A stretch of 64,000 bases of DNA, from NCBI GenBank assembly GCA_039587465.1, contig JBDHIL010000010.1, forward strand, positions 56,511-120,510. Direction: 5' to 3'. The notes beneath the pieces were generated by a model, which saw only the letters and a program-made list of their open reading frames with translations, made no database searches and was not told the DNA's origin. Each line of letters opens with the position of its first letter. The first letter of the stretch is position 1. The DNA comes from Gemmatimonadota bacterium (GTDB lineage: Bacteria; Gemmatimonadota; Gemmatimonadetes; Longimicrobiales; Gaopeijiaceae). The translations under genes were made by a program, and so were the position numbers. This document shows positions 7,759-56,147 of this stretch, piece after piece.

Positions 7759-10575
7759 TCAAGGAATGGAAGCGCCGCCGGGCTCACCGAGCTCCTGAAG
7801 CAGAGTTCGCAACTCCTCCAACGTCTCCCCGAAGCCCTGCCAGTCACCTGTCCTGAGCTTCGATTCGGCGAGGTCCAGAAGCTCGAGGGCCGCTTCCGGC
7901 CATTCCCCCGTCGTCATAGTACGGGCAGGGCCAGCGGACGCTTCTCCTTCTGTCTCCGAGAGCGGCAGCGACACCGTCATCCCCGCGAGCTCCCGGATCG
8001 CGCCTTCGAGGTCTTCGGTCATGGCGACACGACGCCCATCGCTGACCACGAAGCGGCGCAGCTCGGGGATGGCGTCGGCGGCTGCCGCCAGGAACACGGA
8101 CTCCATGTAGAGAAGCCTCCCCCCTGCCGGGATGAGGTGAAGGTGCCCGGTCCAGACGTCGCTGCCTCCCGTTCGCCAGAGCGAGAACTGCTGCGAAATC
8201 TGCGGATCCTGCTCTACCAGCGCCTCCACCTGCCTCGGGCCTGGGGCCTGGTCCTCAACCGGAACGTCGAACAGCACGAGTTCCGGTCGCCCTCGCTCGT
8301 CGACCCGAGCCACCAGGATCGCGGTGAGGTTCTGTCGGCCCAGGGGCACGAAGACCGTGGTGAGGTTGAAGCGGGGCTCCTCGCCCGGCAAAGCGTAGAT
8401 ACCGTACTCGGGCCTGTAGGGCACCGGTGTCGTGCCCTGAGCGAACTCCCGCGGATGAGCCCAGACGTCCTGCTGACCATGGAATACGGGCGCATCGTCC
8501 TGGTGGTACTGCAGGAGCACCTCCGCCTGAAGGCTCAAGAGGGCCTTCGGGTACCTGATGTGGTCGCGAATGACGCGGGGCATCTCCTCCAGGGGCTTGA
8601 GCAGCCCCGGGAACGCGGTGTCATAGGCGTCGATGAGAGGGTCATCGATCGGGACACGGTAGAAATCCACCTTCCCGGACACCCCGTCGACGACGACCTT
8701 CACGCTGTTTCGCGCGTAACTGACCCGTCTCCCGAAGTTCAGGTCGCCCGGCGTGGAAAGCGGGAACGCCCGGGTAGCGCTGAAGCCCTCCATGACCCAC
8801 ACCACCCGTCCCCCCGCCACGACCGGGTACGGCGCACTGGGAAAGCGAAGGAAGGGGGCGATGGCGGCGACCCGCTCAGCAACCCGTCTCCGGAACACGA
8901 AGCGGCTGCCCTCGCCGATCTCCGAGGAGAAGAGGAGGTTCGCGTCTCTGAACCGCCATGCCAACGCAGCCTTTCGGAACAAACCCTCGATCCGGATGCC
9001 GGACGGGAAGTCGACGCCTTCCACTCCCGCTGCACCGGTGGGATCCCTGAACTGGTCGTCGCCGGGGTTCACGACCGCGTACATCTGCGGACGGGCACCG
9101 AAGAACACCTGCGGTCGGGACAGTCGGAGGGAATCCAGTCCTACCCCCTGTGTCGAGAACTCGGGAGGAATCCCGGACACGAGCATCTCCGGGCGTCCCT
9201 CAGGAGTCCTCTGCGTAGCCAGGCTGGCGACCACACCCACGCCCCCGATGTACCGCTCGCGGATGTGGAGATTCTGCCAATTCGGATCACCGATCCCGGT
9301 CGGATCGACCTCCCTGACGGAAAGGGCCACGGGGACCGGTCCGGACGGCGTCATGTAGCGGTCGATCGTCGCGTCGGCGAAGTCGTAATACGGATACCTG
9401 GCTTCGAGCTCCCGATACGTGGTGAGCAGGGCTCCCTCGGTCCACACCGGAAGGCCCGCGAACTGCTGCGTGACGTAGTCCCAGTCCACGGCCTCGTCCG
9501 AGCGGTACGGGAAGATGCGTCGCTCCATCTCGTCGAGTCCGAAGCCCCGGCGCGTGAAGTCGATGTTGTGCTCGATATAGGGAGCCTCGCGGTCCAGCTC
9601 ATTCGGCTCCACCTGGAATCGCTGCACCAGGCTCGGGTAGAACTGACCGATGACCACGGACGCGATCGCCACGGTCACCATGGACGCCACCAACGGCCCC
9701 AGGCGGTTCTTCCACGTGCCCCACAGTACCCCGGCGGACGCCACGAAGCAGATGATCGCGAGGGTCTGGAGAGCCGGCAGCCGTGCCTGAGCATCTGCGT
9801 ACCCAAAGATGCCCTGAACGCTGGACGAGCCGTCGAGGAGCAACAGGAAGCGACCCAGCCACAGCCTCATCCCAAGCAGCACGAAGAAGCCGCTCAAAAG
9901 CGCGCCTAGATGCAAGCGTGCGCTTCTGGTCATGGAGAATGCAGTCCCCTTGCCCCACTGCAGCGCTCCGGTAGCCGCATACCCGGCACCGGCCAGGGTG
10001 AACACCAGGAACGTGGCCACGAGGGCGAACGTCACCGCACTGCCGAACACGGGCAGGGAGAACACGTAGAAGCTCAGGTCCCGGCCCAGCACAGGGTCGG
10101 CTACGCCCCACGGTACTCCTGTCACCAAGAGGAGCGCCTGGATCCCGAGGGAGCGCGGCACGGCCGCCCCGAACCACGACCCCATAAGCAGCGACAACCC
10201 GACGAGGCTCCAAACGAGGTATGCCTGCGGAAGCTGTTCGGATATCTCCAGATTGCCGAACCGACGCTTGATCTGAATGCCGCCCAAGCTGCGGATGATG
10301 AGCCGCAGGTTCAGGAAGACGAACAGGGCCGCGGCCACCCCGCTTCCCAACCGGGCGCCCCACTCCCAGATCACCCTACGCCAGAACACCGAGCCGTACC
10401 CCACGTCGGCTTGCCAGAGGATCTCGACCATGGCTGTGGTCGCGAGCCGGCCCATGGCGACCACCACGCCGATCGCGACCACCAGCGCTATGAGCAGACG
10501 TCCGCCTCGCAGCGACCTCAAGAAAGCACCCAAGCTAAACCTCCACGCCCTGACCACGGAGCCAGTCGTAGACAT
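7759..10575 (-). CDS. UPF0182/COG1615-like large membrane protein (family call tentative)
   Basis: About 940 aa; N-terminal multi-TM region followed by a very large soluble region; WQADVGYGSVFWRRV motif recalled as typical of the family; start chosen at MSTTG to avoid overlapping the downstream gene end. Confidence 0.6.
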   Translation of the reverse strand: MSTTGSVVRAWRFSLGAFLRSLRGGRLLIALVVAIGVVVAMGRLATTAMVEILWQADVGYGSVFWRRVIWEWGARLGSGVAAALFVFLNLRLIIRSLGGIQIKRRFGNLEISEQLPQAYLVWSLVGLSLLMGSWFGAAVPRSLGIQALLLVTGVPWGVADPVLGRDLSFYVFSLPVFGSAVTFALVATFLVFTLAGAGYAATGALQWGKGTAFSMTRSARLHLGALLSGFFVLLGMRLWLGRFLLLLDGSSSVQGIFGYADAQARLPALQTLAIICFVASAGVLWGTWKNRLGPLVASMVTVAIASVVIGQFYPSLVQRFQVEPNELDREAPYIEHNIDFTRRGFGLDEMERRIFPYRSDEAVDWDYVTQQFAGLPVWTEGALLTTYRELEARYPYYDFADATIDRYMTPSGPVPVALSVREVDPTGIGDPNWQNLHIRERYIGGVGVVASLATQRTPEGRPEMLVSGIPPEFSTQGVGLDSLRLSRPQVFFGARPQMYAVVNPGDDQFRDPTGAAGVEGVDFPSGIRIEGLFRKAALAWRFRDANLLFSSEIGEGSRFVFRRRVAERVAAIAPFLRFPSAPYPVVAGGRVVWVMEGFSATRAFPLSTPGDLNFGRRVSYARNSVKVVVDGVSGKVDFYRVPIDDPLIDAYDTAFPGLLKPLEEMPRVIRDHIRYPKALLSLQAEVLLQYHQDDAPVFHGQQDVWAHPREFAQGTTPVPYRPEYGIYALPGEEPRFNLTTVFVPLGRQNLTAILVARVDERGRPELVLFDVPVEDQAPGPRQVEALVEQDPQISQQFSLWRTGGSDVWTGHLHLIPAGGRLLYMESVFLAAAADAIPELRRFVVSDGRRVAMTEDLEGAIRELAGMTVSLPLSETEGEASAGPARTMTTGEWPEAALELLDLAESKLRTGDWQGFGETLEELRTLLQELGEPGGASIP

Positions 10576-11905
10576 GACCACGGATCTCGTCGAGCCGTGC
10601 CTGCGTCTTCGCCTCGAAGCGGGCCACGATGACGGGCTGAGTGTTGGAAGCACGCATGAGCGCCCATCCGTCTCCATAGAGCACGCGGGCTCCATCGACG
10701 TCGATGACCTCGTGCGTGGACTTGAAGTGCTTCACGGCATCCTTCACCACCTTCCACTTCTGCTCCTCAGTGACGTCGATGCGTATCTCGGCGGTGGACA
10801 CGTAGACCGGGAAATCCGCGACCATCTCCGAGAGAGACCGATCCGATCGGGCCACGAGGTCGATGAGACGGCAGGCATCGTAGAGCGCGTCGTCGAAGCC
10901 GAAGTAGTCGTCCGCAATCATGATGTGACCGCTGAGCTCACCCGCGAGGAGGGCTCCAGTCTCTTTCATCTTCTTCTTGATGAGTGAGTGGCCGGTCTGC
11001 CACATCACCGGGTCGCCGCCGGCGGCGCCGAACACCTCAGGCAGCACCTGGGAGCACTTGACGTCGAAGATGAGCTTCTGGCCTGGCCCCCTCTTCTTCA
11101 GCAAGTCGAGCCCATACAGAAGCAGGAGGATGTCTCCCCGGATGATGGCACCGTTTTCGTCCACGGCCCCGATGCGGTCGGCATCGCCGTCGAACGCGAC
11201 CCCCAGGTCGTGGGGACTGGCCCTCACCGCCCGGATGAGATCCTCGAGGTTCTCGTCGACCGTGGGATCCGGATGGTGGTTCGGAAAGGTCCCGTCGGAT
11301 TCGCAGAACAGAGGCGTTACCTCACAGCCCATGGCCTCGAGGAGGGGCACGGTGAGGAGCGCGCCCGTCCCGTTACCGGCGTCGGCCGCGACCTTCATGG
11401 GTCGTGCGAGTTCAAAACGCCCAGCGACGTCGGCAATGTACCGCTCGAGAACGTCTTCCCGATCGTGGACCCCCGCGCCTGAGGTGAAGTCACCGTCGAC
11501 GATCCTCCGTCTGAGGTCCTGGATCGCACTGCCATACATGGAATGGCCGCCCACCGACATCTTGATGCCGTTCCACTCGGGCGGGTTGTGTGACCCCGTG
11601 AGCTGAACGGCAGCGTCCGTACCCGAGGTGGCGTCCGCCCAGTACAGCGTAGGCGTGGGGACCGTGCCGACGTCGAGCACATCACAGCCGGCGGCTCTGA
11701 GTCCCGCAATCAGCCCCGCGACGAGCGCAGGCGAGGTCTCACGGTTGTCATGCCCCACCGCCAGCCTCGGACCGTCCTTGTCGGTAGCGCCGCGCACATG
11801 GGAACCGAAGGCGCGTCCGACGGCTTCGGTGACCTCAGGATCGAGGTCTTCGCCCACGATGCCGCGGATGTCGTATTCACGGAAGATATGAGAAGCAGGA
11901 TGCAT
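10535..11905 (-). CDS. phosphomannomutase/phosphoglucomutase (alpha-D-phosphohexomutase family)
   Basis: TGSHNPPEWNGIK active-site serine loop, DGDADR metal loop; start taken at MHPASHIF. Confidence 0.85.
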   Translation of the reverse strand: MHPASHIFREYDIRGIVGEDLDPEVTEAVGRAFGSHVRGATDKDGPRLAVGHDNRETSPALVAGLIAGLRAAGCDVLDVGTVPTPTLYWADATSGTDAAVQLTGSHNPPEWNGIKMSVGGHSMYGSAIQDLRRRIVDGDFTSGAGVHDREDVLERYIADVAGRFELARPMKVAADAGNGTGALLTVPLLEAMGCEVTPLFCESDGTFPNHHPDPTVDENLEDLIRAVRASPHDLGVAFDGDADRIGAVDENGAIIRGDILLLLYGLDLLKKRGPGQKLIFDVKCSQVLPEVFGAAGGDPVMWQTGHSLIKKKMKETGALLAGELSGHIMIADDYFGFDDALYDACRLIDLVARSDRSLSEMVADFPVYVSTAEIRIDVTEEQKWKVVKDAVKHFKSTHEVIDVDGARVLYGDGWALMRASNTQPVIVARFEAKTQARLDEIRGHVYDWLRGQGVEV

Positions 11906-48057: not shown

Positions 48058-48438
48058 TCAGTTGCCCGGGTTGCCGGTAGTTCCCTCGTCAACCGCACCC
48101 GGGTCACCACCCGCAGGCGACGGGTCGCCCAATCCCGGGAGAATCGGGTCGGGTGCCGGGGCCGTCACCGGGGCGTCGATCTGAATCACCGACTCGGGGG
48201 CCTGGGATCGGGAGGACATGATAGACAGCACCAGGGCAAGCACCATGAAGGCCGATCCGGAGATCCACGTCGACCGCGTCAGCATGGTGGTGGCCTGGCG
48301 ACCGCCAAGGAGTCCCTCGGTCATCGCGGCACCACCACCAACAGCGGCGAGCCCTCCGCCTTTGCCGGATTGGAGGAGGATCACCACACCAAGAAAGAGG
48401 CCATCGAGTACCAGGATGGCGAGCAAGATACCGTACAT
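48058..48438 (-). CDS. secG: preprotein translocase subunit SecG
   Basis: LVLDGLFLGVVILLQSGKGGGL signature; downstream of tpiA as in the conserved gap-pgk-tpiA-secG block. Confidence 0.85.
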   Translation of the reverse strand: MYGILLAILVLDGLFLGVVILLQSGKGGGLAAVGGGAAMTEGLLGGRQATTMLTRSTWISGSAFMVLALVLSIMSSRSQAPESVIQIDAPVTAPAPDPILPGLGDPSPAGGDPGAVDEGTTGNPGN

Positions 48439-48529: not shown

Positions 48530-49282
48530 TCAGCCCGCAGCAGCCACGATGCCGGCAAAAGACTCGGGAACCAGGCTCGCGCCACCCACCAGGACCCCAT
48601 CGACCTCAGAGGCCGCCAGCAGTTCGCCCGCGTTTCCCGGCTTGACGCTGCCCCCATACAGAAGGGGCACCAGCATCGCGCGGGAGATACCGACCCGCTC
48701 CTCGAGCCTGGCACGAAGCGTGGAGTGCGCGCCGGACGCGTCCGCGGGGGTCGCGGTTTCACCCGTTCCTATCGCCCAGACGGGCTCGTAGGCGAGGAGG
48801 AACCGCGCCTCGGATGCGGCCAGAGCATCCAAGGCAGCATCCAACTGTCCGAGGATAACCTCTTCGACCCTTCCACCCCGGCGCTCCTCGAGTGTCTCAC
48901 CCACACACACGACCGGAACCAGTCCGTGCCGACGAGCCGCGTGGACCTTGTCCGCCACCTGCGCATCGGTCTCTCCGAAGACATGGCGACGCTCCGAGTG
49001 GCCGATGAGGGCAAACGACGCACCCGCGCTGGCCGCCATGCCCCCGGACACCTCACCGGTGAACGCCCCTGAATCCTCGAAATGAATGTTCTGGACACCC
49101 AATTGGATCCGTGGATCCCGATCCGTGGAGGCGGCCGCCGGAGCGATCGACACGGACGGAGGAAAGATCAGCAACTCGTGCCGGGAAGCGTTCTGGGGAA
49201 GTCGAAGCGCGCCGAAGAAGTCGTGCGCCTCGCCCGGCCCCATGTGCATCTTCCAGTTACCCGCTATGACCGCCATGCTCAA
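48530..49282 (-). CDS. tpiA: triosephosphate isomerase
   Basis: 250 aa; AGNWKMH, IGHSERR, AYEPVWAIGTG motifs. Confidence 0.92.
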   Translation of the reverse strand: MSMAVIAGNWKMHMGPGEAHDFFGALRLPQNASRHELLIFPPSVSIAPAAASTDRDPRIQLGVQNIHFEDSGAFTGEVSGGMAASAGASFALIGHSERRHVFGETDAQVADKVHAARRHGLVPVVCVGETLEERRGGRVEEVILGQLDAALDALAASEARFLLAYEPVWAIGTGETATPADASGAHSTLRARLEERVGISRAMLVPLLYGGSVKPGNAGELLAASEVDGVLVGGASLVPESFAGIVAAAG

Positions 49283-50487
49283 CCCTTGTCGGAAAGAGAG
49301 GACACACCGGGGAGCTCGGCGCCAGCCAGGAACTCCAGGCTCGCTCCCCCACCGGTGGATACGTGACTTAGCCGGGATGTCACCCCGGCCTGCTCGGCAG
49401 CCGATGCCGAGTCTCCACCCCCGAGGACGACCGTGGCCCCGGCGTCACAGGCCGCCGCGGCCGCCTCCGCGACCGCGAGGGTCCCCGTCGCGAAGGGCTC
49501 CATTTCGAACACACCCATCGGCCCGTTCCAGACCACCGTTCTGGCACCGGCGACCTCACGAGCAAACATGGCTTGCGTGGCCGGACCCACATCGGCAATG
49601 CGATGGTGATCCTGGACGGCTTCCCTGGGGACAACCTGTGTGGACGCCGCGGTAGATATTTCATCGGCCACGACGCAGTCGATCGGAAGAACGATCTTGT
49701 CGCCTGCGCGCCGGAGGGTCTCGGCGGCCACCTCGATCCGATCGGGCTCGACCAGAGAGGCGCCCGTTTCCAGGCCGAGGGCCCGGAAGAACGTGTTGGC
49801 CATCGCGCCCCCGATCAGGAGCCTGTCGACCTTGGGCAGCAGCGCATCGATGACGTCGATCTTGCCTGAGATCTTCGCTCCCCCGAGGATGGCCACGAAC
49901 GGCTGCTCCGGGGCCTCCAAAGCCGCCCCGAGGAACCGCAGTTCTCTCGCCACCAGCAATCCGGCCACGGCCTTGCCGCCTCGGGCTATCACCGCCTGGG
50001 CGAGCCCCGCGGTGGAAGCATGCGCGCGGTGCGCAGTGCCGAACGCGTCGTTGACGAAGACGTGACCCAGGTCCGCCCATGTCCCCGCGAGTTCGGCGTC
50101 ATTGGCCGTCTCACCCGGGAGGAAGCGGGTGTTCTCCAGAACGAGCACGCCTCCATCGGCCAGGGCCGCTACCCCTTCCTGCACGGAAGGACCGGCAGAC
50201 TCCGTGCAGAAGCCGACCGCCGAGTCCAGGAGTTCACCGAGACGCGATGCCACGGGGGCGAGACTGAATTCAGGCGTTGGCTGCCCCTTGGGTCGCCCCA
50301 GGTGCGATAGGAGGACGACCCGCGCCCCGGCAGACACCAGGAGTCGGAGGGTCGGCAGAGAAGCTGCGATGCGGGTTTCGTCGGTGATGCGATCGCCGTC
50401 GAGGGGAACGTTCAGATCGGCGCGCACGAGAACGACCTGCCCCGCCAACTCCGCGGGATCGAGATCGCTGAGGGTGGTCTTGGGCAT
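49279..50487 (-). CDS. pgk: phosphoglycerate kinase
   Basis: RADLNVPLDG... SHLGRPKG motifs; start taken at MPKTTLSDL, since the longer ORF would overlap the upstream gene end. Confidence 0.9.
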   Translation of the reverse strand: MPKTTLSDLDPAELAGQVVLVRADLNVPLDGDRITDETRIAASLPTLRLLVSAGARVVLLSHLGRPKGQPTPEFSLAPVASRLGELLDSAVGFCTESAGPSVQEGVAALADGGVLVLENTRFLPGETANDAELAGTWADLGHVFVNDAFGTAHRAHASTAGLAQAVIARGGKAVAGLLVARELRFLGAALEAPEQPFVAILGGAKISGKIDVIDALLPKVDRLLIGGAMANTFFRALGLETGASLVEPDRIEVAAETLRRAGDKIVLPIDCVVADEISTAASTQVVPREAVQDHHRIADVGPATQAMFAREVAGARTVVWNGPMGVFEMEPFATGTLAVAEAAAAACDAGATVVLGGGDSASAAEQAGVTSRLSHVSTGGGASLEFLAGAELPGVSSLSDKG

Positions 50488-50635: not shown

Positions 50636-53476
50636 TCAGCGGCGGTCCAGATTTCGCGTTGCGACCAGCGGCAGACTGGACTCGGGAACGTCGACAACTA
50701 CGCGCACCGTATACTCACCAGAAGGCACGTCTGACAGTGCAACCGTCACGAAGTCACGCGTCGGTCCATCGAGTTCGACGCTTCGATTCCAGGCGGTCCT
50801 GAAGCCTTCCGCACCAGCCGGGCGCGAAGGCAGTGTCCGGGTGCGGCCCGTGTCCCGATCGACCAACTCGACCCGGATCTGGTATCCGGACGTGGACTCT
50901 GCGACGTCGTAAAGCTCGAACATCACTCCGAAGGCGTCCCGCTCCAGCGGGCGGGCGAGCGTCTCGGGAGTTACCCAGGACTCCCTGCGGTCCAGATCGC
51001 CCCCGCTGGGCCAAGTCGGCTCGACCAGCAGGAGGTCGGAGATCGTTGCACCGCCCTCCCCGGGGATCAAGGCGGCGACGCCACGTCGAAACGCAGCGGC
51101 CTGCCCTACCCTGCGATTGAAGACCTCCACGACGATGCTCGACACACCAGCGGCGATCGGTGCCCTGAACGAGAGCGGCGCCGGTCGGGCCGGAATCTTC
51201 CGAATGGTGCTTCCAACCCGTTCGCCCTCGGCTGAAATCAGGAAGACGCCGACTTCGAGCGTGTCTGTCTCGATCGTGGTGAGGGCCTGGGGAACCTCAG
51301 TGTGAATCTCCAACTCGAACTGGCCTGGAACGTCACCCCGGAACCGCGACATCTGGCCCGGAAGACTGAAGACGGTCCGAGAGCGGCCTCCGTACCGATG
51401 CGGAAGCACGCGGAGCAGATCGGTCAGGTAGGCACGGGACTCCTGTGTGAGGCTCATATCCTCGGAGGACGCGATCCGCCGGAACGTGATGTCCGGACCG
51501 TTGCCGTAGTCCCAGAACTCCGTGCGCAGCCCACTGTTCTCACGAAAGACGCGGACCTCGTCTGGCCGGCCGTAACGGACCCAGACCTCACCCGGCTCGG
51601 TAAGGGCACCGCCGAAACGGAGAATTGCATATGCAGCCCTCGCAACGTGTTCTACCCGACGCTCGTTGACGGAAGTGGAGAGAATAGGGTCCAAGGGGGC
51701 CCAGAATGCGTCCACCCACCGCTTCCGCTCGTCCCCGGAGACCGCCGCATAGGCTTCGTCCTCACCCCCGAGAAGAAGACGGATGTCCTCGAGGTCGGAC
51801 GCCTCACTCGGCGCCATCACGCGAAGTGCCATCTTGAACTGACCGTCGGCCTCTTCTGAGCGGGAAAGACGCTGCAGGGCCAAGCCGCTGATGAGCAACC
51901 CGTAGGGATGCCCACGGGACGACCGGATGAATCGCTGCGCGCCGTCCAGCACGGCATTCCATTGCCCCTCGTCGGCGAGAGCGAGGAGGACCTCGACATT
52001 GGCGCCGACGTGGGACGGGTCGGCCTCAACTGCCCGGCGGAACGAGGCCAGGCTGACTGCCAGATCACTGGCGGCCCCTTCGTCCGTGCGACGGAACGCC
52101 TCGGCGAACACCACCCCGAGCTCGGCCGGGCAAAGATGGTTCCACGCGATGAGGCGCTCGACCGAAGCGTGGCCGGACACCGCCTCGCCCGAAGACCGGG
52201 CCTGGGAGCAGGTCTCGATCGGGAGGCTCGCGGCGGGCACCCGTCCCTCTCCACGCTGACTGAGCCAACTCTCCCTCACCAACGTGCCCCGCTCGTAAAG
52301 AAATTCAGCGAGGAGAGCAGGCGATACGCCTTCGCCACCTCTCATGGCTCGCTGCAATCCGCGCTCGAAGAGCAGCCGCGCTTCGGTCCTGAGTCCCTGC
52401 TTCCGCCGAATGCGGGCCAACGCCAGGAGAGGCGCCGGGTTGTCGGGATCCCGAACCATCGCATCCTCGAGCACCCCGGTGACAGTGGTGCGCCAACGCG
52501 TGGGCCCCCTGCCCGAAGGCGGATTCGCGGCGAGAATGGACTCGACCGACCCGAGCGACTCGAGCAGTTCGTCGTCATCGACTGCAGCCCTGAGAAGCTC
52601 TCCTGCCTCACGCTGCGCCGGAGCCGTCAAGACCGCTTCGTGCGTCCACTCAGGGAGCAAGCTCAGGTCGAGCACGTCCGGAGCATCGGGACCAGAGATC
52701 GGATCCGCGGGCCGAGGCACACTGGCAGGGTCCCCGGCCGCCGGAAGCGGACGGAACCGAACATCGAACTCCACCCACGCCCCCACAGCCTCCCCACGTC
52801 GGCGTGCAGGAGTGAACCGGAAGCTCGGCGCGGCCTGAAGGGCTGCCCGATCCAGCTCGGGAACGCCTGAACCCCGACGAAGGTTGACCAACTCGACCGC
52901 GCCCGTGGAGTCCACCCAGAGAAGCAGTCTGGCGGTTCCACCGACACCGGCATGCTGCAGTTCCAACGGATAGTGCTCGCGGATGACCCACTCGACCCGG
53001 CCTCGATCCTCGAACTCCGGAAAAGTCGCTTCGGGACCGCGGTACCGCTCGAGCGCGGCCGGAGCGGATGGAGGCTCGGATGGAATGACTAGTGGCGTCT
53101 CGGGTTCATCTCCTTCGAGCGCCGCCTCCGGCAGATCGACCGTGATCGCCGGAGGCGTGCCCGGATCCGGCTGCAACGGCCCGGCGACCTCGGCCGGAGG
53201 ACCCTGGATCGCGCTGACCAGCCTGACCAAGGAGGCGCGGGCACCCGGAACGCTGAGGCCCACCAAAAGGAGCGCGATCACCGCCGCAGCAGCTAGATGC
53301 CGCCGCGACGAAGTGGGGGGGTGAGTCGAGATACGGACCCACTCCCTGGCTAGTTCGGCTTCCAGTTCAGGTTGGAATGACGGGCGTTCCTCGTAGCTCA
53401 GAGACGAGAGCTCAGCGTGGATCGCCGCCAGGTCGGGGGGAACCCCGATGCCTTCAAGGTCCTGTCTATCGTTCAT
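50636..53476 (-). CDS. 946-aa multidomain anti-sigma-like protein: cytoplasmic N-term, TM, Pro-rich linker, TonB_C-like domain, TPR-like region, GWxTD-like domain, C-terminal beta-rich domain
   Basis: TM HLAAAAVIALLLVGLSVPG; TonB_C-like GVGGTARLLLWVDSTGAVELVNL...APSFRFTPARRRGEAVGAWVEFDVRF; GWxTD-like FWAPLDP...NERRVEH...PGEVWVRYGRPDEV; 4-bp overlap with the upstream ECF sigma gene. Confidence 0.65.
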   Translation of the reverse strand: MNDRQDLEGIGVPPDLAAIHAELSSLSYEERPSFQPELEAELAREWVRISTHPPTSSRRHLAAAAVIALLLVGLSVPGARASLVRLVSAIQGPPAEVAGPLQPDPGTPPAITVDLPEAALEGDEPETPLVIPSEPPSAPAALERYRGPEATFPEFEDRGRVEWVIREHYPLELQHAGVGGTARLLLWVDSTGAVELVNLRRGSGVPELDRAALQAAPSFRFTPARRRGEAVGAWVEFDVRFRPLPAAGDPASVPRPADPISGPDAPDVLDLSLLPEWTHEAVLTAPAQREAGELLRAAVDDDELLESLGSVESILAANPPSGRGPTRWRTTVTGVLEDAMVRDPDNPAPLLALARIRRKQGLRTEARLLFERGLQRAMRGGEGVSPALLAEFLYERGTLVRESWLSQRGEGRVPAASLPIETCSQARSSGEAVSGHASVERLIAWNHLCPAELGVVFAEAFRRTDEGAASDLAVSLASFRRAVEADPSHVGANVEVLLALADEGQWNAVLDGAQRFIRSSRGHPYGLLISGLALQRLSRSEEADGQFKMALRVMAPSEASDLEDIRLLLGGEDEAYAAVSGDERKRWVDAFWAPLDPILSTSVNERRVEHVARAAYAILRFGGALTEPGEVWVRYGRPDEVRVFRENSGLRTEFWDYGNGPDITFRRIASSEDMSLTQESRAYLTDLLRVLPHRYGGRSRTVFSLPGQMSRFRGDVPGQFELEIHTEVPQALTTIETDTLEVGVFLISAEGERVGSTIRKIPARPAPLSFRAPIAAGVSSIVVEVFNRRVGQAAAFRRGVAALIPGEGGATISDLLLVEPTWPSGGDLDRRESWVTPETLARPLERDAFGVMFELYDVAESTSGYQIRVELVDRDTGRTRTLPSRPAGAEGFRTAWNRSVELDGPTRDFVTVALSDVPSGEYTVRVVVDVPESSLPLVATRNLDRR

Positions 53477-54147
53477 GATTCCACGTTGATTTGGAACCCA
53501 TCTTGGTCTACAGCCTTCTTGAGCCGCTTCAGCGCCCGGTGGAGCCGGACGGCCACGGCGTTCTTGCTGACGTTCAAGTGCTCCGCGATCTCACCATTGT
53601 CGAGCCCTGCCCCGAACTTCAGGGACAGGATGTCCTGGTCTCCCTTGCCCAGCGTCTGACTTCCATTCAGCAGGTGCTGGATCCGCTCCTGCTTGACCAT
53701 CCGCTCCTCTTGCGACGGCACGTCCGCGACGAGGTCAGGAATCCGGTCGAGAGACACGTGGAGCGACCCTCTGCGCCTGAGCGCCCGGAGGTGGTCAGTC
53801 ACCGCATTCCTGGCGATGCGAAGAAGCCACGTCCGTGGCGCGGCACGATTCGCATCGTACCGCCGAAGGGACCGCAGCGCCTTCATGAATACCTGGGACG
53901 TCACATCTTCCGCGGCTTCCCGCGTTGCGACTCGGAACCGCACGTAGCGGTACACGGCGCTCTGGTGCTCACGGTACCAGGCGTCGAAGTCCGGAGGCAG
54001 CCTCTGGGACTCCGCGCCCGGGGCGCGAGCGGTGATCGACCCGGTGCGTATCGGCTGTTGTGTTTGCATCGCCCGATTATACGAGGGGGAACAAGGCTTC
54101 TTACACCTTTCAACCCCGTACGTGCGGCACCACCGTTCGAGATTCAC
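53473..54147 (-). CDS. ECF RNA polymerase sigma factor (start uncertain, possibly the internal MQTQQ)
   Basis: Sigma region 2 (YRYVRFRV...) and region 4 (GEIAEHLNVSKNAVAVRLHRALKRL). Confidence 0.85.
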   Translation of the reverse strand: MNLERWCRTYGVERCKKPCSPSYNRAMQTQQPIRTGSITARAPGAESQRLPPDFDAWYREHQSAVYRYVRFRVATREAAEDVTSQVFMKALRSLRRYDANRAAPRTWLLRIARNAVTDHLRALRRRGSLHVSLDRIPDLVADVPSQEERMVKQERIQHLLNGSQTLGKGDQDILSLKFGAGLDNGEIAEHLNVSKNAVAVRLHRALKRLKKAVDQDGFQINVES

Positions 54148-54192
54148 ATCGGACCCGGTTCCGCGGCAACTCTAGAGTCTTCGGGGTGGAAA

Positions 54193-54233
54193 TCCACAGC
54201 GGCCGCCGGGATTTCCCCGGCGGCCGCTGTGGA
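54193..54233 (-). terminator. long hairpin downstream of gap
   Basis: TCCACAGCGGCCGCCGG-gatttcc-CCGGCGGCCGCTGTGGA, 17-bp perfect stem. Confidence 0.6.
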
Positions 54234-54259
54234 CCCGCTTTCCATCAGCTGCGATGAGC

Positions 54260-56147
<1,888 letters not shown>

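Follow-up and report, generated by a model that had tools for sequence, protein, structure and literature searches.

Pairs of an extracytoplasmic function (ECF) sigma factor and an anti-sigma factor are a well-known signalling design. Here we analyzed a 64-kb stretch of the Gemmatimonadota contig JBDHIL010000010.1 (the window, with positions counted from its first letter), in which an ECF sigma gene and a 946-aa open reading frame (ORF), called the partner below, lie between gap and pgk. We consider it probable, with moderate confidence, that the two genes form a module of an ECF sigma factor and its cognate membrane anti-sigma factor, built into the gap-pgk-tpiA-secG operon of a Gemmatimonadota lineage. 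The anti-sigma function of the partner is plausible.

In the FecI/FecR/FecA system, an ECF sigma gene is followed by that of a single-pass inner-membrane regulator with a periplasmic part reaching the outer membrane, and TonB-type contacts are part of the signalling logic. The organization predicted for the present pair is similar in both respects. However, no FecR domain (PF04773) was found and no transporter was adjacent in the neighbourhoods, and TonB_C is built into the regulator here instead of coming from a separate TonB. The partner also resembles TonB transducers (TIGR01352/PF03544) in its predicted N-in transmembrane (TM) helix, its Pro-rich spacer and its TonB_C domain with a YP motif. 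In contrast to these transducers, it has no SxxxH and no exbBD nearby, its cytoplasmic segment is long and conserved, its long forms continue for 700 residues past TonB_C, and its gene is coupled to a sigma gene.

Anti-sigma domains of two helices (class II, CnrY/NepR) and of three helices (class III, RsbN) have precedent (PMC6101532). The partner is like them in having a short helical cytoplasmic segment (two helices, about 50 residues) before a single TM helix, and a further likeness lies in the best curated model of the sigma protein, the BldN family, matched at a score under its cut-off. However, the partner showed no sequence likeness to any solved anti-sigma factor, and its sigma binding is putative. 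RsiV and RsiP undergo site-1 cleavage by signal peptidase (PMC6066255, PMC8844934). The partner likewise has an AxA directly after the TM helix and then a short amphipathic helix, but it contains neither DUF4179 nor the RsiV ligand domain, and its cleavage is purely hypothetical. Stand-alone TPR-GWxTD proteins (TIGR04514; PF20094) are colinear with a whole 660-residue unit of the partner. They start with a signal peptide or a different N-domain of about 300 aa, whereas in the partner the unit is fused behind TonB_C and RGW is deleted. In the literature searched, we found no anti-sigma candidate with a TonB_C periplasmic input, no relevant paper on ECF groups of Gemmatimonadetes, and no mention of GWxTD.

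The pair comprises the following features, with evidence for many of them in brackets; AF2 is AlphaFold 2, and pLDDT is the predicted local distance difference test score.

54076..54105, minus strand: conserved motif TGTAAG-N16-CGTATAAT that looks like an ECF-type promoter; strict match at 54080..54105, with the ATG 10 nt after CGTA
53473..54069, minus strand: ECF sigma gene, 198 aa (Sigma70_r2, r4_2, TIGR02937; public gene calls)
50636..53476, minus strand: partner, one continuous ORF of 946 aa
53306..53476, minus strand: partner residues 1-57, predicted cytoplasmic, candidate sigma-binding module (conservation; AF2 helices)
53243..53305, minus strand: predicted N-in TM helix, residues 58-78 (hydropathy; helix 57-75 in the model)
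53234..53242, minus strand: A79-R80-A81 after P77, an invariant AxA of the signal-peptidase type
53027..53206, minus strand: Pro-rich disordered spacer, residues 91-150 (25% Pro; conservation 0.31; pLDDT <50)
52748..53005, minus strand: TonB_C domain with YP motif, residues 158-243
52622..52747, minus strand: second disordered linker, residues 244-285 (19% Pro; conservation 0.34; pLDDT <50)
51782..52621, minus strand: TPR-like helical solenoid, residues 286-565, with invariant C423 and C449
51377..51781, minus strand: GWxTD-type domain, residues 566-700, with the eponymous RGW deleted (TIGR04514; alignment; AF2)
50639..51376, minus strand: two tandem beta-sandwich (Ig/MG-like) domains, residues 701-946, missing in a clade of about 700 aa (AF2)

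A scan of one-genome-per-species representatives retrieved 77 distinct loci, all from metagenome-assembled genomes (MAGs) of Gemmatimonadota; many were labelled Longimicrobiales, and others Gemmatimonadales or Gemmatimonadaceae. The complete chromosomes OZ252109.1 and CP070829.1 also have the locus. The sigma factor and the partner co-occurred in all 77, in families with short and with long partners. The sigma protein of the window matched the Pfam models Sigma70_r2 (61.1 bits) and r4_2 (37.5 bits), both over the cut-off, as well as TIGR02937 (98.1 bits, cut-off 42.9), and the solved-structure sequences nearest to it were ECF sigmas. Passing the family hidden Markov model (HMM) at about 200 aa, with only regions sigma-2 and sigma-4, it is by its sequence a sigma factor of group 4 (ECF type). 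Its best curated model, the BldN family TIGR02952, gave 127.2 bits against a cut-off of 206.45, and the protein was not assigned to that family. Across the loci, sigma identity was 64-81%, with one outlier at 49%, which is similar to the identity of glyceraldehyde-3-phosphate dehydrogenase (GAPDH; 70-84%).

The first-pass annotation of this DNA had started the sigma gene at GTG 54147, giving 224 aa. The additional 26 codons hold the conserved promoter motif, and the start at ATG 54069 (198 aa) matches the gene calls on public contigs; we therefore take the gene to encode 198 aa. The tight coupling of the sigma gene to the partner that had been proposed was borne out. The sigma stop and the partner start share the sequence ATGA, which gives a 4-bp overlap, and the partner gene is translationally coupled to the sigma gene. 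The distance between the two was -4, -11 or -1 nt in 37 of about 75 scored loci and below 45 nt in nearly all the rest.

The partner had been described as a protein with a short cytoplasmic N-terminus, one TM helix, a Pro-rich linker, a TonB_C domain, TPR repeats, a GWxTD domain and a beta-rich C-terminus, and this architecture held in our analysis. TonB_C scored over its curated cut-off and contains the YP motif, and superposition of its predicted fold on solved TonB gave 2.0 A; on either side of it lies a disordered linker of low conservation. The GWxTD model TIGR04514 matched residues 573-657 with 36.4 bits (cut-off 28). The Pfam GWxTD model PF20094 gave no match to the partner, and a Pfam search with residues 570-946 found nothing. 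In the AF2 model, the GWxTD-type domain consists of helices and a three-stranded sheet packed on the solenoid, and it was modelled confidently only within the full-length protein. The TPR solenoid and the two C-terminal beta-sandwiches were confirmed by a confident AF2 model. The C-terminal beta-rich region is present as two beta-sandwiches, but it spans about 246 aa (residues 701-946) and not the roughly 300 aa first stated. Likewise, the GWxTD domain is real, but within the string quoted for it GEVWVRYGRP sits just downstream of the place that the eponymous motif has in relatives. The G-W-x-T-D motif itself is not present: a 7-residue deletion takes out RGW, and only T/S-E/D is left. A split of the 946-aa ORF into two genes was considered and was ruled out by the more than 120 full-length homologues with 40-70% identity, all of them from Gemmatimonadota MAGs.

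Two cysteines of the TPR-like, predicted periplasmic region, C423 and C449 (52130..52210, minus strand), were invariant in 37 of 37 aligned homologues. This pattern suggests a conserved disulfide.

The cytoplasmic N-terminus was the best conserved stretch of the partner. The mean majority frequency was 0.73 for residues 10-50, in comparison with 0.69 for TonB_C and 0.65 for GWxTD. This stretch carries the motif LPPELxxLDxELSxIxxEERPSFxPELEAEL, with two predicted helices (residues 14-24 and 35-49) and ten invariant residues (E22, L23, E30, R31, S33, F34, P36, E37, L38 and L42), and it is common to short and long forms, so that the 270-aa and 940-aa proteins have the same design. The hydrophobic segment 58-84 contains the sole 19-residue Kyte-Doolittle window above 1.6 and is preceded by SSRRH, which points to an N-in topology. 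SRRH was also weighed as a twin-arginine translocation (Tat) signal, but the family does not conserve the twin arginine, and this idea was rejected. After the TM helix, P-x-A-R-A was invariant in 37 long forms, and the short ones conserve it too; A79-R80-A81 has the form of a signal-peptidase site and may be cleaved. A short amphipathic helix follows (hydrophobic moment 1.48 for residues 82-92). No Pfam match was obtained for residues 1-97 even at E = 10, and the N-terminus contains no Cys/His motif (HxxxCxxC), so it was not placed with the class I anti-sigma domains of the zf-HC2/RskA/RseA type. Searched against PDB sequences, the N-terminal profile matched only coiled-coil designs and a Tat signal peptide, the latter around its cleavage site. 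In 5 of 26 N-termini, the N-terminus and TM helix gave colinear matches of 13-16 bits to NF052375, "anti-sigma factor", the cut-off of which is 100.

In a search of 1.84 billion cluster representatives, a profile of residues 286-946 matched 4452 clusters (50% identity) at E <= 1e-3, 1503 at <= 1e-10 and 237 at <= 1e-30. The GWxTD unit is thus part of a large superfamily. The best 150 of the 4452 matches were classified with local HMMs. All matches of at least 283 bits among these 150 belonged to the fused family: where the N-terminus is intact, both the N-terminal motif and TonB_C are present, and the remaining sequences are C-terminal fragments of the family. The approximately 85 matches scoring 280 bits or less all consist of TPR, GWxTD and beta regions alone, without the N-terminal segment or TonB_C. 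The 660-aa unit of TPR, GWxTD and two beta-sandwiches is colinear from end to end with relatives of 700-760 aa (150-280 bits). The outside relatives that were inspected were of two types, one with an ordinary signal peptide and a length of about 700-760 aa, the other with about 1000 aa. They pass TIGR04514 at 38-51 bits, lack TonB_C and keep the RGW(D/E)T(D/E) motif at the place of the 7-residue deletion in the window family. These data agree with the earlier statement that GWxTD proteins are normally stand-alone and secreted, and among the matches seen the fusion to TonB_C is specific to the window family.

The relatives of about 1000 aa (P0187, P0192, P0209, P0223 and P0259) have a signal peptide and an unrelated N-domain of about 300 aa, followed by the TPR-GWxTD-beta unit. 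No Pfam or NCBIfam match was found for this N-domain.

The partner occurs in three length classes. Most loci encode about 940 aa; nine loci encode about 700 aa, without the beta-sandwiches; and a form of about 270 aa consists only of the N-terminus, TM helix, linker and TonB_C. The 270-aa family is large (137 clusters, 43-97% identity) and has the same genomic context. In a neighbour-joining tree of gap, pgk and tpi, the root of which is uncertain, the 700-aa and 270-aa classes were each monophyletic and were nested among 940-aa lineages. The 700-aa form looks derived. For the short form, an ancestral status was considered; given the uncertain root and a diversity equal to that of the long family, either direction is possible for it. 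What all forms of the system have in common is the sigma factor and a TonB-like membrane protein with a conserved cytoplasmic segment.

In three MAGs (L057, 217 aa; L070, 31 aa; L046, 658 aa), the partner ORF was interrupted, and its later parts were still matched by tblastn. These interruptions could be frameshifts, pseudogenes or assembly errors.

On the minus strand of the window, the order is gap, ECF sigma, 946-aa ORF, pgk, tpiA and secG. The features next to the pair are as follows.

54260..55270, minus strand: gap (GAPDH), ORF upstream of the sigma gene, with Gp_dh_N/Gp_dh_C in orthologous loci
54192..54234, minus strand: hairpin with a 19-bp perfect stem directly after the gap stop (RNA fold)
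49279..50487, minus strand: pgk, downstream of the partner
48530..49282, minus strand: tpiA, downstream of pgk
48058..48438, minus strand: secG, downstream of tpiA

The motif (T/G)GTAA(C/G/T)-N16-17-CGTA was present before the sigma gene in 72 of 73 loci, with CGTA 7-12 nt from the ATG (exactly 10 nt in 43 loci). When 984 kb of loci were scanned on both strands, 66 of 67 strict matches lay at the pre-sigma position, and the 64-kb window contained a single match (54080..54105) against 0.09 expected. The conserved letters of the motif are the AAC and CGT that typify ECF promoters, for example those of B. subtilis sigma-W and sigma-X. The motif looks like an ECF-type promoter for autoregulation, and it may be used by the sigma factor that it precedes. 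Because there is no room for a Shine-Dalgarno sequence between the motif and the ATG, the sigma mRNA is probably leaderless or nearly so. The GC-rich hairpin after gap was strongly folded (-53 kcal/mol, z = -6.3), and it was missed by the terminator scan owing to its weak U-tract. Stems of at least 9 bp without interruption were found in the gap-sigma spacer of 48 of 72 loci and were absent where the spacer is shorter than 20 nt; in nine loci, the -35 element lies within 18 nt of the gap stop. The post-gap hairpin is a probable terminator or insulator between gap and sigma, judged from its predicted fold. No terminator-like site was found in the 148-nt gap between the partner and pgk, and pgk, tpiA and secG are probably co-transcribed with the pair.

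The length of the gap-sigma spacer ranged from about 50 to about 500 nt across the loci. In one lineage (L003, 5041..5292), an 83-aa gene without a Pfam match was called between gap and sigma.

In the mechanism that we propose, the cytoplasmic segment of about 50 residues and two helices would bind and sequester the sigma factor; in this it would resemble the small clamps of CnrY/NepR and not the class I domains with four helices. TonB_C would tether the partner across the periplasm to an outer-membrane protein bearing a TonB box. It may be the minimal input, since it is the sole periplasmic domain in the 270-aa forms, and the TPR-GWxTD-beta unit would add a second input that binds a ligand or another partner. 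On a signal, the periplasmic part would be cut by a protease, perhaps at the invariant AxA, and intramembrane cleavage would follow. Once released, the sigma factor would transcribe its own leaderless operon into pgk-tpiA-secG, plus a further regulon. Several observations weigh against this proposal. The pLDDT of the N-terminal helices was only 55-68, and no curated anti-sigma model scored above noise and no likeness to any solved anti-sigma factor was found. The named homologues of the partner are annotated in public as "TonB family protein". No transporter, site-1 or site-2 protease gene or exbBD was found in the conserved neighbourhood. With regard to a regulon, no second instance of the promoter was found in the window or in about 1 Mb of locus flanks. 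Essential glycolytic genes behind an inducible promoter are also odd, which suggests that the sigma factor may be largely constitutive or that internal promoters exist.

In another explanation, the partner is a true TonB paralogue energised by ExbBD, with a C-terminal accessory module and an N-terminus that contacts ExbB, and the sigma factor merely regulates it or is co-expressed with it. We regard this as unlikely. In the consensus of 120 N-termini, from short and long sequences, the TM helix had no conserved His or Ser, so the SxxxH signature of TonB is absent, and no exbB or exbD families were present in the inspected neighbourhoods, that is, in the surroundings of the loci. The cytoplasmic segment, about 55 aa, exceeds that of E. 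coli TonB in length and is conserved more strongly than any other part of the protein; TonB_C is C-terminal only in the 270-aa forms and is followed by 700 residues in the long forms; and the translational coupling to the sigma gene also argues against it. The invariant P-x-A-R-A after the hydrophobic segment allows a different explanation, namely that the N-terminal 81 residues are a long cleaved signal-anchor and that the mature product is a soluble periplasmic TonB_C-GWxTD protein, a member of the regulon of the sigma factor and not a regulator of that factor. The match of the N-terminal profile to a signal-peptide cleavage region, and the secretion of the nearest relatives of the sensor unit via ordinary signal peptides, are in line with it. 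However, signal-peptide n-regions are short and variable, whereas no part of the partner is better conserved than the 50 residues ahead of its hydrophobic core, which include 10 invariant positions. Cleavage at AxA would fit regulated site-1 processing equally well, as in RsiV and RsiP (PMC6066255, PMC8844934). We hold a signal-anchor to be quite improbable.

The genomic position of the pair had been explained in the first-pass annotation by an inserted module of 3.6 kb that splits gap-pgk, taken here as recent and accessory. The genes gap, pgk and tpiA are contiguous in many other bacteria, and the strong hairpin after gap together with a promoter of its own makes the pair a separable unit. 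However, the order aroE-comF-gap-sigma-partner-pgk-tpiA-secG was found in every retrieved locus with enough flank (the 77 loci and several metagenome contigs), with both partner families and with partner identities of 37-55%. The synteny comparison that had been proposed as a check thus came out against the insertion: gap-pgk is interrupted by the same pair across the lineage, down to 37% partner identity. The GC content of the pair (64-69%) is unremarkable and the same as that of the flanks, and the divergence of the sigma factor parallels that of GAPDH. In addition, the partner stop and the pgk start share 4 nt in nine loci, those of the 700-aa clade, in which, from the gene overlap, the partner is translationally coupled to pgk. 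As a recent event the insertion is effectively refuted, and we give it hardly any weight. An ancient insertion at the base of the lineage is possible; if the pair was ever an insertion, it is ancient and fixed in a large Gemmatimonadota lineage.

In a few loci, additional DNA separates the partner from pgk, namely 2.4-3.4 kb in L065 (8301..10755) and L066 (7929..11372) and 0.7 kb in L042 (9060..9772); that of L066 carries long ORFs on the opposite strand. In the metagenome contig of P0366, a phage-type integrase gene and several small unannotated genes directly follow the short partner at the usual place of pgk, and in this genome the junction of partner and pgk seems to serve as an integration site. 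From these loci and the integrase island, the linkage of the partner to pgk is usual but not obligatory.

The rest of the 64-kb window is core chromosome, with a complex I operon, sdhA, a 2-oxoacid dehydrogenase E1 component and dnaB, and no paralogues of the partner domains were found in it. The window also encodes a UPF0182 family protein of 978 aa (635 bits; 7759..10695, minus strand), which adjoins a phosphoglucomutase-type gene. UPF0182 is an uncharacterised family of large membrane proteins and has no relation to the sigma/partner pair.

The proposal of an ECF sigma/anti-sigma module can be extended to an undescribed class of anti-sigma factor that merges the roles of TonB and FecR. TonB_C would read the exposure of a TonB box on an outer-membrane protein, GWxTD would provide a second input, release would proceed through cleavage by signal peptidase at the invariant AxA as in RsiV, and the freed sigma factor would drive a leaderless operon with pgk-tpiA-secG in it. 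We consider this extended form decidedly unlikely; if it were true, it would connect sensing at the envelope with central carbon metabolism and with secretion throughout a Gemmatimonadota lineage. With a GWxTD unit wired to a transcription factor whose promoter can be recognised, experiments could address what GWxTD senses, by means of a reporter in a heterologous host. Given the fixed position between gap and pgk, the near-leaderless mRNA and the coupling to pgk in one clade, the ECF sigma factor may have a part in expressing essential genes of glycolysis and secretion in these bacteria, most of which are uncultured.

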